IMG/VR virus record: IMGVR_UViG_2711768072_000012
DNA from: a virus
Taxonomy: Duplodnaviria; Heunggongvirae; Uroviricota; Caudoviricetes
Length of the DNA: 10,030 nt
Reading direction: 5' to 3' (one strand)
A program made the position numbers and the translations under genes. Positions 2,590 through 9,628 of this stretch are shown here, piece after piece (the first letter of the stretch is position 1; each line of letters opens with the position of its first letter). The notes under the pieces are model-generated. The model was given only the letters and a program-made list of their open reading frames with translations, had not been told where the DNA came from and did not search any database.

Positions 2590-3552
2590 ATGAGCAGCAA
2601 GCTTCATGGTCTTGTCTGGGAAGGGTGCGCCTTCACCGGCATGATCTTATCCAGGGTGGCGGTTATGGCCCGTCTTGCAGACTACAGCAATGACGAGGGC
2701 GTGTCATGGCCTGCCATTGAAACTATCCGGCGTCAGATCGGTGCAAGAAGTGAATCCACAGTGAAATCGGCTATTGCAGAACTGGCGAAAGAGGGCTGGC
2801 TGACGAAGGAAGAGCGTAAGGTCGGTGGGCGTAATGTAAGCAATATCTATCGACTTAATGTGGAAAAACTCGAAGCAGCTGCGGCGGCGGCGCGTGAGTC
2901 ATATAAACCGAAAAGAAAAATTAGCCCGGCAAAAAATGACCCGTTAACAGTTGACCCGTCAAATATTGACCCCTCAACGGTTGACCCGTCAAATTTTGAT
3001 GGATCAACTGTTGATAAAAAACTGCCGATTAGGGGGGCGATGATTGACCCCGATCCGTCAGTATTAAAACCTGATCCGTCAGATAAAAGATCTTCTTGTC
3101 CGGACGCTTCGCAACCGGACCCGCAGACGGCTGAACAGGATTTTTTAACCCGACACCCTGACGCGGTTGTGTTCAGTGCGAAAAAACGCCAGTGGGGAAG
3201 TCAGGAAGATTTGGTGTGCGCACAGTGGATCTGGGGACGAATCGTGAGTCTTTACGAGCAGGCGGCCAGCTATGATGGCGAGATCACTAGACCGAAAGAA
3301 CCCAACTGGACAGCATGGGCCAATGACGTTCGCACAATGCGGATGCTGGATGGCAGAACTCACAGACAAATTTGTGAAATGTTTGGGCGTCTCCAGCGGG
3401 ATTCGTTCTGGGTAAAAAACATCATGAGTCCGGCAAAACTCCGGGAAAAATGGGATGAACTGGTTATCCGCCTGGGGCGTTCGCCTGCGCAGCGTTGCGT
3501 GAATCACATTTCTGAACCGGACACTGAAATACCGCCGGGATTCAGGGGGTGA
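2590..3552 (+). CDS. ydaU: YdaU-like replication initiator (lambda O-like replisome organiser) carrying internal iterons
   Basis: N-terminal winged-helix-like region, then a repetitive DPxxx linker encoded by tandem 15-bp DNA repeats. Sits immediately upstream of a DnaC-like loader gene. ATG 2590 chosen over the track's GTG at 2575. Confidence 0.75.
   Translation: MSSKLHGLVWEGCAFTGMILSRVAVMARLADYSNDEGVSWPAIETIRRQIGARSESTVKSAIAELAKEGWLTKEERKVGGRNVSNIYRLNVEKLEAAAAAARESYKPKRKISPAKNDPLTVDPSNIDPSTVDPSNFDGSTVDKKLPIRGAMIDPDPSVLKPDPSDKRSSCPDASQPDPQTAEQDFLTRHPDAVVFSAKKRQWGSQEDLVCAQWIWGRIVSLYEQAASYDGEITRPKEPNWTAWANDVRTMRMLDGRTHRQICEMFGRLQRDSFWVKNIMSPAKLREKWDELVIRLGRSPAQRCVNHISEPDTEIPPGFRG
2936..3025. 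repeat. Six tandem 15-bp iterons (consensus tTGACCCGTCAAnnn): probable prophage origin of replication inside ydaU
   Basis: Units start at 2936, 2951, 2966, 2981, 2996 and 3011; the last two are degenerate. An A-rich tract and four GATC sites (3002, 3052, 3073, 3089) follow. This is analogous to lambda ori inside gene O. Confidence 0.6.
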
Positions 3553-5702: not shown

Positions 5703-6341
5703 ATGAAGATGAAAAACATGTCTGAAGTGTTGACCCAAGAAAAGCTTATTTTTGTTGCCCAGAGACTAAAGGCCCTCGCGCAGTCAGGCCTGACCTATTC
5801 AAAAGACGTCTTTGACAAGGAACGCTATGAAGCCTTGCGTGAAATTGCCGCTGGACTGCTGAGTTCGCAGTTTGATATTAGCCGCAATGATTTGTTTCAT
5901 GTATCGGAAACGGGTTACGCGACGCCCAAAACAGATGTGCGTGCGTTTATCCTGCGTAATAATCGTATTCTGATGGTGAAAGAGGCTGCAGATGGATTAT
6001 GGAGTCTTCCTGGCGGATGGGCAGATGTTGGAGATACACCTTCTGAAGCTGTGCGTCGAGAGGTCGAAGAAGAAACCGGATTAAAAGTCAGAGTGACTAA
6101 ACTATTGGGAGTTTGGGATCGTAATCTTCACGGCCATCCGCCTTTACCCTGGCATGTTTACAAGCTGATTTTTCTCTGTGAAGAAGTAGGTGGCAGCCTG
6201 TCAATCAGCCATGAGTCACTCGATGCTGATTTTTTTGATGTCAACGACCTGCCTGAATTGTCGCTTTCAAGAATTGTGCCTGAGCAGATTGCTGTCAGCC
6301 TGAGAGTAGCGAAAGGTGATGAAAAAACATGGTTTGATTAA
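5703..6341 (+). CDS. NUDIX hydrolase with N-terminal extension
   Basis: Nudix box GGWADVGDTPSEAVRREVEEETGL fits Gx5[E/D]x7REUxEExGU with D at the first acidic position. An ~80-aa N-terminal domain precedes it. Start is ambiguous between ATG 5703, 5709 and 5718; SD is weak and the upstream region is AT-rich. Confidence 0.8.
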   Translation: MKMKNMSEVLTQEKLIFVAQRLKALAQSGLTYSKDVFDKERYEALREIAAGLLSSQFDISRNDLFHVSETGYATPKTDVRAFILRNNRILMVKEAADGLWSLPGGWADVGDTPSEAVRREVEEETGLKVRVTKLLGVWDRNLHGHPPLPWHVYKLIFLCEEVGGSLSISHESLDADFFDVNDLPELSLSRIVPEQIAVSLRVAKGDEKTWFD

Positions 6342-6370
6342 CTTTCTTCTGCAACCATTAAGGAATGGCA

Positions 6371-7009
6371 ATGATATTCAACGCTAAGGGTTTTTTATTC
6401 GATATGGACGGTACGCTGGTTGATTCAACAGCCGTAGTGGAAAGCGTCTGGAGAGATTTTTGTGCAGAATACGGTCTTGATACTCAGGCTGTGATTGCTT
6501 ACGCACACGGGCGGCAAACGATTGATACACTGACGCATTTTATTGGTGCAGGTGAGAAAACCAATAAAATCGCGGCCTCACTCGAAGAGGTTGAAATCAA
6601 CACGACAGAAGGCGTTACTGAAGTAAAGGGGGCCGCTGCACTCTTATCAAAACTGCCACCGGATAGCTGGGCACTTGTCACTTCTGCAGGCAGAATGCTT
6701 GCCGAAAACAGGATGAAAGCGGCTAATCTCCCCTTACCCATAGTAATGGTGTGTGCAGAAGATGTAATGACGGGAAAACCAAGTCCCGAGGGTTACATCA
6801 AAGCAGCTTTGGCTTTGGGCCTTGAGCCTGGTGAATGCGTGGTATTTGAGGATGCATCTGCGGGTATAAAAGCAGGGCTGGCAAGTGGAGCTTCGGTAAT
6901 AGCTGTTCAGCCTGACGCTCTGGGATCATCTGAAGCCCATGCCGTCAGCGAACTGTCTGACATTATGGTCAAGATTTCCGGAGAACGTTTCAATATCATC
7001 TGTGGTTAA
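6371..7009 (+). CDS. HAD-superfamily hydrolase (beta-phosphoglucomutase/phosphatase-like)
   Basis: HAD motifs: FDMDGTLVDS (motif I), VTSAG, TGKPSPEGY (Lys motif) and FEDASAGIKAGLASGA. ATG 6371 is preferred because AAGGA at 6360-6364 gives a 6-nt spacer; the track start is 6365. Lies 23-29 nt after the NUDIX stop. Confidence 0.8.
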   Translation: MIFNAKGFLFDMDGTLVDSTAVVESVWRDFCAEYGLDTQAVIAYAHGRQTIDTLTHFIGAGEKTNKIAASLEEVEINTTEGVTEVKGAAALLSKLPPDSWALVTSAGRMLAENRMKAANLPLPIVMVCAEDVMTGKPSPEGYIKAALALGLEPGECVVFEDASAGIKAGLASGASVIAVQPDALGSSEAHAVSELSDIMVKISGERFNIICG

Positions 7010-7069
7010 TCACGTTACACAATACGCATCAATGGACGCTGAGTAGCTCGCGAGTTTTAAACTTCCAAC

Positions 7070-7093
7070 GTCCGCTTTTCGCTCAAAGCGGAC
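7070..7093. repeat. Hairpin (arms GTCCGCTTT / AAAGCGGAC) downstream of the HAD gene
   Basis: Perfect 9-bp inverted repeat with a 6-nt loop, and no U-tract. Shares its arm sequence with the hairpin at 5604-5627, and both are followed by a similar (A)TAG.AGGT tail. Confidence 0.5.
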
Positions 7094-7272
7094 TAGAAGG
7101 TTAGCTTGCGTCGGACTTGGCGTATTTAAAGAAGTGCTGGTGGTGACTGGTTGTTGTGTTCCATTTCTACAGAACAAAATCACAGAAACTATACCCAATA
7201 GTTGTATTGAATCACTGACGAGACAGCCTCATATTTATCAGGACTGGTGTACGTCCAATACAGGAGGTTGTG

Positions 7273-7362
7273 GTGCTGGTTCTCAAATGTGCGCTGGCTA
7301 TTGCTGCTGTAATGGCAATTTATTGCCTTGCTGTTGTTCTTATGGATCGCCTTTCTGATTGA
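7273..7362 (+). CDS. possible small hydrophobic peptide (~29 aa, GTG start)
   Basis: AGGAGG at 7263-7268 followed by GTG at 7270/7273. Encodes VLVLKCALAIAAVMAIYCLAVVLMDRLSD, a single predicted TM helix. The frame choice is uncertain. Confidence 0.2.
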   Translation: MLVLKCALAIAAVMAIYCLAVVLMDRLSD

Positions 7363-7369
7363 TTTCATA

Positions 7370-7398
7370 TTGGCGAGGTGACGGGAGTTAAGTAGAAT
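7370..7398 (+). promoter_or_regulatory. candidate hok mRNA promoter
   Basis: TTGGCG (7370-7375), a 17-nt spacer, then TAGAAT (7393-7398). The predicted 5' end near 7405 (GGGTGCTTGAGGC) resembles the hok mRNA 5' tac region and is complementary to the 3' segment at 7780-7792. Confidence 0.4.
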
Positions 7399-7439
7399 GG
7401 CTGCGGGTGCTTGAGGCTATCTGTCTCAGGCATGAACAC

Positions 7440-7530
7440 CAAAGGCAGATAGAGAAAAGCCCCAGTTAACATTACGCGTCCTGCAAGACGCTTAACATTA
7501 ATCTGAGGCCATATCTATGCTCTACACACG
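7440..7530 (-). ncRNA. sok: predicted Sok-like antisense RNA region (approximate bounds)
   Basis: Inferred only from hok/sok locus architecture: the antisense RNA is normally complementary to the mok leader and start. Minus strand around 7530-7560 has a weak TTGCCT-17-TAACCT promoter-like pair. Ends are not determined. Confidence 0.3.
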
Positions 7531-7729
7531 TAGGTTAGCCTCTTACGTGCCGAAAGGCAAGGAGAAGCAGGCTATGAAGCAGCAAAAGGCGATGCTAATC
7601 GCCCTGATCGTCATCTGTTTAACCGTCATTGTGACGGCACTGGTAACGAGGAAAGACCTCTGCGAGGTACGAATCCGAACCGGCCAGACGGAGGTCGCTG
7701 TCTTCACAGCTTACGAACCTGAGGAGTAA
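7517..7729 (+). CDS. mok: mok-like upstream reading frame, here in frame with hok
   Basis: ATG at 7517 opens a 70-codon frame that runs into and through hok in the same frame. The leader resembles the mok leader of hok/sok loci. Confidence 0.35.
   Translation: MLYTRRLASYVPKGKEKQAMKQQKAMLIALIVICLTVIVTALVTRKDLCEVRIRTGQTEVAVFTAYEPEE
7574..7729 (+). CDS. hok: Hok/Gef family type I toxin (51 aa)
   Basis: MKQQKAMLIALIVICLTVIVTALVTRKDLCEVRIRTGQTEVAVFTAYEPEE has the Hok TM segment and the conserved TRKxLCE...R.G..EVA.F.AYE pattern. By recollection it is closest to HokD/RelF. SD AAGGAG at 7559-7564 with a 9-nt spacer. Confidence 0.85.
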   Translation: MKQQKAMLIALIVICLTVIVTALVTRKDLCEVRIRTGQTEVAVFTAYEPEE

Positions 7730-7797
7730 GAGACCAGGCGAGGGAGAAATCCCTCGCCACCTCTGATGTGTCAGGCATCCTCAACGCACCCGCACTT

Positions 7798-7820
7798 AAC
7801 CCGCTTCGGCGGGTTTTTTA
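7798..7820 (+). terminator. intrinsic terminator (UUCG tetraloop hairpin + T6) ending the hok transcript
   Basis: TAACCCGCTTCGGCGGGTTTTTT: stem CCCGC/GCGGG, extendable to 7 bp, with a TTCG loop and six Ts. Confidence 0.7.
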
Positions 7821-7867
7821 TTGGTTGACAAAATTATGAATATGCACCAATATCTTGGTTGACAAAA
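7821..7867 (+). promoter_or_regulatory. Two direct copies of TTGGTTGACAAAA (each containing a TTGACA -35 hexamer): candidate promoter/operator of the downstream cassette
   Basis: Identical 13-mers at 7821-7833 and 7855-7867, 34 bp apart, between the hok terminator and the first cassette gene. Confidence 0.4.
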
Positions 7868-7902
7868 GTCGTTTTTTGCACGGATTAGGCGGAGAAGTGT
7901 CT

Positions 7903-8496
7903 ATGCAGAACCATCCATTCCCTTGGGAGTTCTTTCCTGAGTTAACAGAGGAGCGTTTAACCATTATAGCTGAGGAGTTGCTCAGGATACAGGATATTAC
8001 TCATGAGTTATTGTCATCGCCCTATGATGATAATTACACTCGTGGTGGTTGTACATTTGGGCGTCAGCGGCAGGCGTTGCTACAAATGTGCGTACGAAAG
8101 ACATATGACTGGTTAAGACTACTTAATCCTGGCATGGATCTTACGTTTTCAATTGGGAATGTCCCTATTCGTTTCTTTACTGATGACGCAGATAACCCCA
8201 AGAAACGCGGTTTTTTCAAAAGAAATGATGCTGATCGACTCTTTGAGTCAGAGGAGACTACTCCAACTATGCATCGCTTTGTGGTTGAAAAGCCTGAATT
8301 TGAAGGCGAGGGTGGTAGAGTCATTTTTAATGGCTATAACGTGTTTGGTGAGATCGTGTCAACTTGGACATATGGTGCGGACCGTGTTGTTATGCTGAAC
8401 TCTGTCGATGATGTACCTCCAGCACCGGTACCTATCGAACTAGAACCTATCAGTGCGTCTAAGACTGAGAAGGAAAAGAAACAAAATAGCAAATAG
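7903..8496 (+). CDS. uncharacterised protein (~197 aa), upstream partner of the HTH-peptidase; candidate effector/toxin
   Basis: ATG at 7903 with GGAG at 7891-7894 (8-nt spacer); the track's 7855 start is TTG inside the repeat. Acidic, no TM segment, no catalytic motif recognised, with a Pro/Lys-rich tail. Stop lies 10 nt before the next gene. Confidence 0.65.
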   Translation: MQNHPFPWEFFPELTEERLTIIAEELLRIQDITHELLSSPYDDNYTRGGCTFGRQRQALLQMCVRKTYDWLRLLNPGMDLTFSIGNVPIRFFTDDADNPKKRGFFKRNDADRLFESEETTPTMHRFVVEKPEFEGEGGRVIFNGYNVFGEIVSTWTYGADRVVMLNSVDDVPPAPVPIELEPISASKTEKEKKQNSK

Positions 8497-8506
8497 TGGG
8501 TGAAAT

Positions 8507-9628
8507 GTGTTTAACGGTACTAATTTAAGACTTGCTCGTCTGTATCACGAGCTATCTCTGGAGCAGGTTGCTGAGAAGGTTGAAAAAACACGCCAGTATG
8601 TACAGCGACTGGAGTCTGGTTCAGCTACTCCATCCCCAGAGCTTATAAATAAATTAGCCGAGGTTTTGCGCGTGAAGCCCGCCTTTTTCGAAGGGCAGGA
8701 ACATTCTCCTGTTAATGAAGAGATTGTACATTTTCGTAAACGCGCCTCGACAAGGATGTCAACGAAGCTATCAACACTCGCTAAGGCTGAGTTTTATCGT
8801 CGTTTTATTGATGTATTTGAAGATAACCTTAATTTGTCACCTGTTCGATTTCCTGAATTTCGTGTCCATACACAAGAAGATATCGAGCGAGCGGCAGAAA
8901 AATGTCGTATTGAGTGGGGCTTAGGCTTTGGCCCAATTGAAAATATGACTCGCCTTGCCGAGAAACTTGGGGCGTTTGTTACTTCATTTGACTCCGTTTC
9001 GGATGAAGTAGATGCACTGTCTGTTCCTCTGCGAAGGCCTTTTATTGTTCGAAATACAGCTAAAAATTCACCTTGTAGGCAACGCTTTGATATTGCTCAT
9101 GAGGTTGCCCATTTGATTCTTCATGAAGGAATTTCTACTGGGGATAGATTAACTGAATCCCAGGCAAACCGTTTTGCCTCTGCTCTGTTGCTTCCCAGAA
9201 CGTCGATGGCGAAATATTTTCCAAGACCTGTGGGGGGGAGGATAAATTGGCAGGGACTAAGCCAATTTAAGTTGACATGGAAAGTAAGTAAGGCTGCCAT
9301 TGTTTACAGGGCTCATCAATTAGGACTTTTGACTGATGAGCAGTACAGAACTGCATTTATGGGGTTGAAACGGAAAGGGGAAGCTATTGATGAAAAAGAA
9401 GATTATCTAATCCCTCATGAGCGTCCTGAGTTATTCCGTCGGGCTTTATCGTTTTTATTTGAAGAGTTAGGATACGACCCACAGCGTATAGCTGATGAAA
9501 TGGATATAGAAGTGGACATTTTTTATGAGTTAGTAGGAGATGATCTTCCTGCGGTTCATGAACTGCCAGGAAGTGGTGATGTTGTTTCACTACAATCTTA
9601 CCGAACTCTTAGAGGCAAAATTCACTAG
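8507..9628 (+). CDS. XRE-family HTH fused to ImmA/IrrE-type (M78, COG2856-like) zinc metallopeptidase (373 aa)
   Basis: N-terminal HTH (LSLEQVAEKVEKTRQYVQRLESGSATPSPELINKLAEVL). Zinc-binding HEVAH in IAHEVAHLILHE followed by ESQANRFASALLLP, the typical ImmA/IrrE signature. GTG start at 8507 with GGGTG upstream. Confidence 0.85.
   Translation: MFNGTNLRLARLYHELSLEQVAEKVEKTRQYVQRLESGSATPSPELINKLAEVLRVKPAFFEGQEHSPVNEEIVHFRKRASTRMSTKLSTLAKAEFYRRFIDVFEDNLNLSPVRFPEFRVHTQEDIERAAEKCRIEWGLGFGPIENMTRLAEKLGAFVTSFDSVSDEVDALSVPLRRPFIVRNTAKNSPCRQRFDIAHEVAHLILHEGISTGDRLTESQANRFASALLLPRTSMAKYFPRPVGGRINWQGLSQFKLTWKVSKAAIVYRAHQLGLLTDEQYRTAFMGLKRKGEAIDEKEDYLIPHERPELFRRALSFLFEELGYDPQRIADEMDIEVDIFYELVGDDLPAVHELPGSGDVVSLQSYRTLRGKIH

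Follow-up and report, generated by a model that had tools for sequence, protein, structure and literature searches.

The open reading frame at positions 7273..7362 on the + strand of the window, as we term the 10,030 nt stretch of viral DNA analysed here, is probably a genuine gene, encoding an optional, prophage-borne, single-pass membrane microprotein that is not a lethal toxin; we would assign this reading a probability of around 0.7. That the sequence constitutes a gene is fairly secure, whilst the function proposed for its product below is a guess. The ORF comprises 29 codons followed by a TGA stop codon (7360-7362) and encodes MLVLKCALAIAAVMAIYCLAVVLMDRLSD, a predicted single-pass membrane microprotein; read from the frame, the peptide is M(V)LVLKCALAIAAVMAIYCLAVVLMDRLSD. 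It usually adjoins a hok/sok locus, yet it is unrelated to hok and is not a required element of the hok system.

The window is 93-99% identical to the E. coli chromosomes that it matches, and represents a lambdoid E. coli prophage. In the matching genomes, the annotated neighbours are a LexA-family repressor, Cro/CI, YdaT, replication genes, DUF1627, DUF977, NUDIX, HAD and hokD, with DUF968, RusA and an antiterminator found further downstream, past hokD. The accessory region is arranged in the order NUDIX, HAD, microprotein ORF, hok/mok/sok and RmrTA, with all of the genes there on the + strand, and the ORF lies in the stretch of variable cargo that separates the replication genes from Q. The hok promoter detected by a promoter scan, which neighbours the ORF rather than forming part of it, consists of TTGGCG (7370-7375) and TAGAAT (7393-7398) on the + strand, separated by a 17 nt spacer. 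Beyond it, also on the + strand, are the hok mRNA leader and sok region (7405-7579; Rfam RF01794, 114.7 bits), mok (7517-7729) and hokD (7574-7729), the latter two taken from the list of ORFs and hokD being annotated by PGAP as 'type I toxin-antitoxin system toxin HokD' in the matching genomes. A strong intrinsic terminator follows hok at 7798-7815 (+), found by a scan as a 7 bp stem with five GC pairs and then TTTTATT; the two ORFs after hok are RmrT and RmrA (PADLOC, E values of 7e-93 and 4e-201 respectively). At the microprotein ORF itself, PGAP and RefSeq have no annotation in any E. coli record inspected.

The ORF is preceded by a Shine-Dalgarno sequence, AGGAGG, at 7262-7267 (+), within the left edge of a conserved module at 7250..7272 (TACGTCmA...GGAGr...). 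A preliminary description of this region had recognised the motif, but placed it one nucleotide too far downstream, at 7263-7268, and had proposed that it serves a GTG-initiated frame of around 29 codons. Such a frame does exist, although two in-frame GTG codons, at 7270 and 7273, follow the TT that comes after AGGAGG, spaced 2 nt and 5 nt from it respectively. The first (7270-7272) is kept in 44 of the 73 full-length loci described below, the codon being TAT, ATC, GTC, ATG or GCC in the others, and GTG 7273, not 7270, is the sole conserved start. As only GTG 7273 is conserved, and 7270 is so close to the Shine-Dalgarno sequence, the product is 29 residues long; AGGAGG at 7262-7267 would direct translation of this peptide from GTG 7273. 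The frame had also been said to end 8 nt before the -35 of hok, and it does stop just short of that hexamer, with a gap of 7 nt between the stop codon at 7360-7362 and the -35 at 7370-7375. Judged from the window alone, this arrangement is statistically unremarkable: 20 ORFs with a length of 20 aa or more overlap the 1 kb around it (positions 6900-7900), and AGGAGG is found twice in the window against 3.6 occurrences expected, hence is not enriched. It is the comparison between loci that lifts the ORF above chance.

A BLASTN search for distant matches to positions 7200-7404 was positive for 3,057 of the 5,426 complete E. coli genomes, at least 80% of the query being covered in 1,846 of them, and for only four phage records. 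Seven loci were aligned in which the upstream gene is HAD, QueH, DUF977 or an unrelated hypothetical, four kinds with no relationship to one another. Homology in this alignment starts around 20 nt 5' of GTG 7273, taking in the Shine-Dalgarno sequence, and from there runs without a gap through the ORF and into the hok promoter. The preceding 7066..7249 (+) is a variable, indel-rich spacer outside the conserved core, containing a hairpin at 7070-7093; it accompanies the ORF in some loci, being common to KFu019, L042 and others, and is replaced in the HannyBb, BL21 and AVS0193 classes.

An earlier pattern scan constrains codons 5-19 and was hence not used for the test of selection, which was applied instead to viral contigs anchored solely on a 26-mer from the -10 and 5' end of hok, a sample blind to the ORF. 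Enough upstream sequence was present at 126 loci, with full-length homology to the ORF at 73. In all 73 of these the start, frame and stop are intact and GGAG is kept, and over 85 distinct 545 nt haplotypes the ORF contains no gap columns, as against 102 of 237 in the upstream spacer. This is the check on frame conservation in homologous loci that the preliminary description had proposed, and the indels that would be expected to break a coincidental frame in a T/G-rich spacer, another of its suggestions, were not seen; the comparison of loci leads us to reject that suggestion. The ORF also has the lowest fraction of variable columns among these haplotypes, at 0.37, and of the 23 nt around the Shine-Dalgarno sequence and start, 65% of columns vary whilst the Shine-Dalgarno sequence and start are themselves conserved.

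The ORF-blind set contains 25 distinct point differences within the frame, none of which creates a stop codon. Twelve are synonymous, whereas redistributing these base changes along the ORF, with the mutation spectrum preserved, gives an expectation of 7.5 (P=0.026). The remaining 13 are all conservative replacements (A/T/V, I/V, V/L, D/N/E, R/H, L/F and S/T), with a mean BLOSUM62 score of +1.08 where -0.32 is expected (P=1e-4), giving a joint P of about 1e-4. The synonymous excess alone is modest (P of about 0.03), the 25 differences being few and drawn from sequences that are closely related and recombine. Taken together, these patterns suggest purifying selection at the protein level, with a signal that is moderate rather than overwhelming.

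None of the other five frames has coding support, the antisense frame that shares wobble positions alone coming close (11 synonymous to 14 non-synonymous, P=0.029), and this frame is not open. The preliminary description had mentioned an overlapping Cys-rich frame as a less plausible alternative, and rightly so: the frame exists, at 7134-7358 (+), but the differences within it are 4 synonymous against 21 non-synonymous, and its upstream part bears indels or is replaced in other loci. A 59 aa ORF on the minus strand (7189-7368), annotated in phage HannyBb, was likewise rejected, with a ratio of 7:18 plus a stop-affecting change.

Conservation might nonetheless act on the DNA, the region serving as a recombination linker between lambdoid modules or contributing to the hok promoter from upstream, with an open frame that is incidental and not usefully translated. 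Short conserved sequences are indeed found at the junctions of lambdoid mosaics; moreover, the sequences compared here are young and similar, such that an intact frame is partly inherited, and PGAP makes no call. Truncated copies of the locus bear on this explanation in both directions. The intact ORF is absent from 53 of the 126 hok-anchored loci (42%), through at least four independent truncations: in class B (38 loci) the stop codon of QueH directly abuts the final six codons of the ORF, whilst classes C, D and E retain 8-13 codons, and in O157-type prophages (L201 and L162) there is a remnant with an insertion in which TGA has become CGA. In all the truncated classes, it is the 3' end of the ORF that is kept upstream of hok, which counts in favour of a DNA-level role. 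However, the remnants in L201 and L162 have gained indels and lost the stop whilst lying beside an intact hok promoter, therefore the conservation of the full-length copies is not explained by a requirement of that promoter. The strictly conservative replacements and synonymous excess, the constancy of the Shine-Dalgarno sequence and start amid variable columns, the intact ORFs found beside a non-hok module and the published initiation and footprint signals (both detailed below) also argue against it, and we regard a purely DNA-level explanation as quite improbable.

As around 42% of such hok loci (classes B-E and others) have lost it, the ORF is dispensable. The converse arrangement also exists. 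When 140 loci were instead anchored on the ORF, the 5' end of hok was next in 124, but 12 (around 9%) have an intact ORF without hok, a DUF1971 gene on the minus strand and DUF1367 coming next instead; one of these 12 is in a Shigella flexneri chromosome. Hence the microprotein ORF and hok are usual neighbours that are genetically separable in both directions.

This separability argues against the ORF being a functional component of hok/sok, whether through a peptide that modulates Hok, or through transcription or translation of the ORF that tunes the hok promoter or makes 5'-extended mRNAs. The adjacency of the two is tight and recurrent, with the stop codon 7 nt from the -35 and no terminator between them, and one locus (L134) has an unrelated 27 aa ORF with a TM segment in the same slot upstream of hok, all of which could be taken to indicate a functional association. 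Yet besides the hok loci that lack an intact ORF and the ORFs that lack hok, published accounts of hok loci on plasmids and chromosomes have them functioning with hok, mok and sok alone (PMC9841398; bioRxiv 10.1101/2025.08.07.668861). We therefore consider such a role very unlikely, and hold as highly doubtful the more specific idea that the peptide is an overlooked third component of hok/sok, which would either gate or counteract Hok as its partner in the membrane, or act independently as an abortive-infection effector cotranscribed into hok. Were this idea true, lambdoid hok modules would differ from the paradigm of plasmid R1, and the small TM-encoding ORF at L134 would represent a recurring design rather than a coincidence. 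The R1 hok system is not known to have components other than hok, mok and sok.

Nor does the ORF appear to be related to hok by descent. The preliminary description had raised the possibility of a decayed hok paralogue, such as might arise from an old duplication. Comparison of the peptide with the HokD of the window using BLASTP gave no alignment even at E ≤ 100, and a Pfam scan of the peptide at E ≤ 1 returned no families, hence not Hok/Gef (PF01848); at 29 aa, the peptide is also much shorter than the 51 aa of Hok. No mok-like overlapping frame or sok-like element was found at the ORF, nor any sign of the folded leader with tac/fbi elements that typifies hok loci, with the Rfam sok model covering only 7405-7579. 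The resemblance is confined to a Cys-containing hydrophobic helix of a general kind and the position beside hok, and the frame appears to be under purifying selection rather than decaying, so this suggestion is almost certainly wrong. Better supported is the small membrane peptide that the same description proposed, in favour of which are the conservation of the frame, the synonymous excess, the conservative replacements, the conserved Shine-Dalgarno sequence and start, and start-site profiling in BL21.

Such a peptide could still be a second membrane toxin of the type I style, held in check by an antisense or trans-acting RNA or by very low expression. At 29 aa, hydrophobic and with a predicted TM helix, it falls within the generic definition of type I toxins (hydrophobic, less than 60 aa, predicted TM helix). 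TisB and ZorO, which are type I toxins of about 29 aa, match it in size and hydrophobicity, and like these and Hok/Gef, Ibs and ShoB it is a small and hydrophobic product of a mobile element. The ORF furthermore has a strong Shine-Dalgarno sequence, and has a genuine type I system as its immediate neighbour, within a prophage hotspot holding both hok/sok and RmrTA. Unlike type I toxins, however, the microprotein has no similarity to Hok, no antisense RNA gene or promoter, no structured leader and no amphipathic helix, its helix being instead rich in Ala, Val and Ile. No promoter-like site facing the ORF was found on the minus strand across 6950-7850, and Rfam detected no family in 6990-7420 besides the edge of sok. 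Folding of 7240-7404 relative to shuffled sequences gave z scores of -0.45 (plus strand) and -0.88 (minus strand), hence no structural signal, and with neither an Rfam match nor a z score far from zero on either strand, a structured RNA was discarded as a reading of the region. Accordingly, these promoter, Rfam and folding scans revealed no cis-antisense or adjacent small RNA antitoxin for the microprotein, although one encoded in trans is conceivable. PasA, a prophage sRNA reported near Sok, was considered as a lead, but lies in the esterase-holin region, not here. The conserved block, moreover, comprises only the Shine-Dalgarno sequence and the ORF, leaving no room for a conserved antitoxin gene. 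The microprotein also appears, unlike type I toxins, to be translated in growing cells: the initiation and footprint signals recorded from growing BL21 argue against strong toxicity at the native level of expression. Given that there is no antisense promoter, RNA family or structure at the ORF, and given this apparent translation in BL21, a toxin role looks unlikely.

The translation signals come from a survey of microproteins that includes the copy in BL21 (NC_012971.2 1591437-1591524(-), sequence VLVLKCTLAIVAVMAIYCLVIVLMDHLSD; Fesenko et al., PMC11188072 Table S4), where it is assigned to class Entero67K and cluster Escherichia_98807 (389) ('The Cryptic Bacterial Microproteome', PMC11188072). 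The same source reports predicted coding potential for it, gives a dN of 0.074, a dS of 0.161 and a dN/dS of 0.46, and in the RET dataset lists TIS counts of 13, a TIS fraction of 1, RPF counts of 38 and an RPF coverage of 0.90. The retapamulin start-site (Ribo-RET) signal is thus a weak one, of 13 reads from a re-analysis (PMC11188072), and these published values constitute weak, though independent, evidence that translation initiates at that same GTG and that the frame is under coding selection. The BL21 copy (L006) aligns without gaps to the ORF of the window and occupies the same place upstream of hokD, with 25 of 29 residues identical; the differences are A7T, A11V, the A20V/V21I region and R26H. 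The paper and database entries for Escherichia_98807 assign it no function, and do not mention the link to hok/sok or the prophage hotspot.

Identical peptides are present in public protein collections under the names 'membrane protein [Escherichia coli]' or hypothetical protein, and GenBank entries that include ACT39199.1 and ACT43394.1, from REL606 and BL21(DE3), are labelled 'conserved hypothetical protein' or 'membrane protein'; the longer members of the cluster are mere alternative upstream start calls. A HMMER search against 1.84 billion representative sequences returned only nine hits, all at least 86% identical, with no distant relatives detectable. When one genome per species was scanned with a degenerate codon pattern, matches were limited to E. 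albertii, E. ruysiae, Shigella flexneri and three MAG contigs, all three of which carry the same phage DNA. The family therefore has a narrow distribution, in Escherichia and Shigella. Searches of the peptide sequence against Pfam, NCBIfam, PHROGs, PADLOC and PDB produced no meaningful match, the best of the weak ones being a TM segment of ATP synthase c (E=0.0098) and phrog_19319 (E=0.74), and a full-text search of the literature for the peptide string returned nothing relevant.

The peptide is predicted to contain one TM helix, as the preliminary description had noted: mean Kyte-Doolittle hydropathy over residues 6-24, a 19-residue window, is 2.70, which fits a transmembrane segment. This single hydrophobic helix, extending from approximately C6 to M24, would lie between the invariant K5 and a polar, acidic tail with the pattern D/N/E-R/H-L-S-D; in addition to K5, the residues C6, Y17, C18 and D29 do not change among the variants sampled. 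By the positive-inside rule, the peptide would be expected to insert into the inner membrane as a single pass with its N-terminus inside. A7, A11, A15 and C18 are on one face of the helix, and this surface of small residues suggests packing against another transmembrane helix. Our best guess is that the microprotein would be present at low abundance and would bind a membrane protein of the host or of the phage, or modulate it, through helix-helix contacts, rather than forming a lethal pore.

A promoter scan and the comparison of loci identified no conserved promoter for the microprotein ORF. A weak promoter-like pair on the + strand, TTGAAT (7207-7212) and CATATT (7230-7235) with a 17 nt spacer, scored 8/12; this is below the threshold of the scan, and as its -35 is lost in the common TCTCAT variants, it was rejected as a promoter for the ORF. 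Since the conserved block has no promoter and the upstream modules differ between loci, transcription is likely to enter it from upstream, with the same orientation as the early-right operon; in BL21, the DUF977 CDS extends 40 nt into the microprotein ORF. A terminator scan found none between the ORF and hok, the first downstream being that at 7798-7815. Two weak hairpins within the ORF that resemble terminators (7297-7316 and 7314-7327) were taken to be by-products of T-rich codons. Transcripts crossing the ORF therefore probably run on through hok and end at 7798-7815. Hence the ORF would be expressed by read-through from the early-right operon, or from whichever module happens to lie upstream of it.

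In E. coli, several small single-pass proteins of the inner membrane, such as KdpF (29 aa), AcrZ (49 aa), MgtS (31 aa) and CydX (37 aa), bind larger membrane proteins using a helix surface of small residues. The microprotein would be analogous to these in size, in having one hydrophobic helix with a few charged residues at its flanks and a face of small residues, and in having its own Shine-Dalgarno sequence. However, it has no sequence similarity to them, as reflected in the absence of an NCBIfam or Pfam match, and it is borne by prophages, found in only around a third of E. coli genomes and outside the core genome.

In its genetic setting, the ORF resembles the morons and accessory genes of lambdoid phages found in the nin region or between the replication genes and Q: it is part of a variable cargo that includes NUDIX/HAD, QueH, hok/sok, RmrTA and DUF1971, and it comes and goes as a single block at whose edges homology ends abruptly, as seen in classes A-E and the four upstream genes. 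Classic morons carry their own promoter and terminator, whereas no conserved promoter was found at the microprotein ORF and the nearest terminator is after hok. The gene may hence best be viewed as an optional, 'moron-like' accessory module of lambdoid Escherichia and Shigella prophages.

The existence of the ORF is not new, the family having already been catalogued among GenBank hypotheticals and in Entero67K, and nothing known of hok/sok is overturned; the value of the present analysis is incremental, and it should hold no surprise for the specialist. What it adds is the correct start codon, the boundaries of the module, a test of selection blind to the ORF and the controls provided by natural decay, together with the finding that the ORF and hok can each occur without the other, the restricted host range and the placement in a hotspot of hok and RmrTA cargo. 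The case also illustrates how a gene of 30 codons can escape annotation pipelines. Should the peptide be produced, about a third of complete E. coli genomes (1,846 of 5,426) carry a translated membrane microprotein that is unannotated in RefSeq, in a prophage hotspot dense with toxin and defence genes (hok/sok, RmrTA), and it would be a well-defined and inexpensive candidate for work on phage microproteins, in which modulation of the host membrane, superinfection exclusion and interplay with Hok may all be considered.

Upstream of the small ORF (window 7273-7362), the window carries a cargo pair formed by a NUDIX hydrolase (5703-6341) and an HAD hydrolase (6365-7009). In other prophages this slot is taken by QueH, or by a pair of uncharacterised proteins of 415 aa and 227 aa; in some it is empty, and DUF977 then adjoins directly. 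The variable spacer module between the cargo pair and the small ORF is common to the window and loci of the KFu019 type, with homology between them beginning near 7066. At its left edge lies a hairpin with a perfect 9-bp stem, GTCCGCTTT-TCGCTC-AAAGCGGAC (7070-7093), which has no T-run.

The junction 5' of the small ORF has also been remodelled by deletion. In the BL21 locus (L006), the copy carrying the Ribo-RET signal, a shortened annotated DUF977 CDS (1204-1563) extends 40 nt past the start of the small ORF at 1524, in a different frame; the overlap arose through a deletion by which the two modules became fused. A truncation of the small ORF, class B, accounts for 38 of the 126 viral-contig loci collected with the 26-mer at the hok -10 and 5' end. 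Here a deletion has left only the six 3'-terminal codons of the small ORF, fused to the QueH stop (about 2736-2763 in L128, where the junction reads AAGGAG-N7-ATG GAT CAC CTT TCT GAT TGA), such that a mini-ORF encoding MDHLSD, with a good SD, lies immediately 5' of the hok -35. A remnant of the small ORF's 3' end is likewise found upstream of hok in an O157-type prophage of E. coli E2865 (L201, 1195-1245) and in L162; both have an insertion and a change of the TGA stop to CGA, and PGAP annotates a partial pseudogene just 5' of the remnant.

In one viral contig (L134, IMGVR_UViG_2802429219_000011), the position of the small ORF, just 5' of the hok -10, is filled by a 27-residue hydrophobic ORF of different sequence, MTWPEAFTTVGIALAVALVVYSICRWG (3048-3131, minus strand of the locus). 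It has its own AGGAGG SD, and the gene preceding it, which ends in WMPLPEPPQEVNQ, has its stop in an ATGA overlap with the start of this ORF; a Pfam search with this ORF returned no match. It may be a positional analogue of the small ORF, or a coincidence. In phage HannyBb (L004, PP925841.1), two minus-strand CDSs annotated as 'hypothetical protein' (1454-1743) cover the small ORF together with the promoter of hok. These are probably mis-calls, as the substitution pattern, with 7 synonymous versus 18 non-synonymous differences and one stop-affecting change, lends the minus-strand frame no support.

The sequence 3' of the small ORF is also variable. Twelve loci, among them L042 (5144-5811) and L200 of Shigella flexneri (CP182557.1), have a convergent DUF1971 gene, with DUF1367 beyond it, in the place of hok after an intact small ORF; homology to the hok promoter region stops around 20 nt past the small ORF stop. 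In Escherichia albertii NBRC 107761 the small ORF is retained along with the hok leader, but the sequence around the hok start diverges (…GGTCAAGGAGATGTATGGGT); hence the same upstream module is joined to a different hok allele. In the window, the first two genes past the hok terminator encode RmrT (7855-8496; PADLOC, E 7e-93) and RmrA (8507-9628; PADLOC, E 4e-201), the latter containing HTH and Peptidase_M78 domains. Hence this prophage has a second toxin-antitoxin/defence pair directly 3' of hok/sok.
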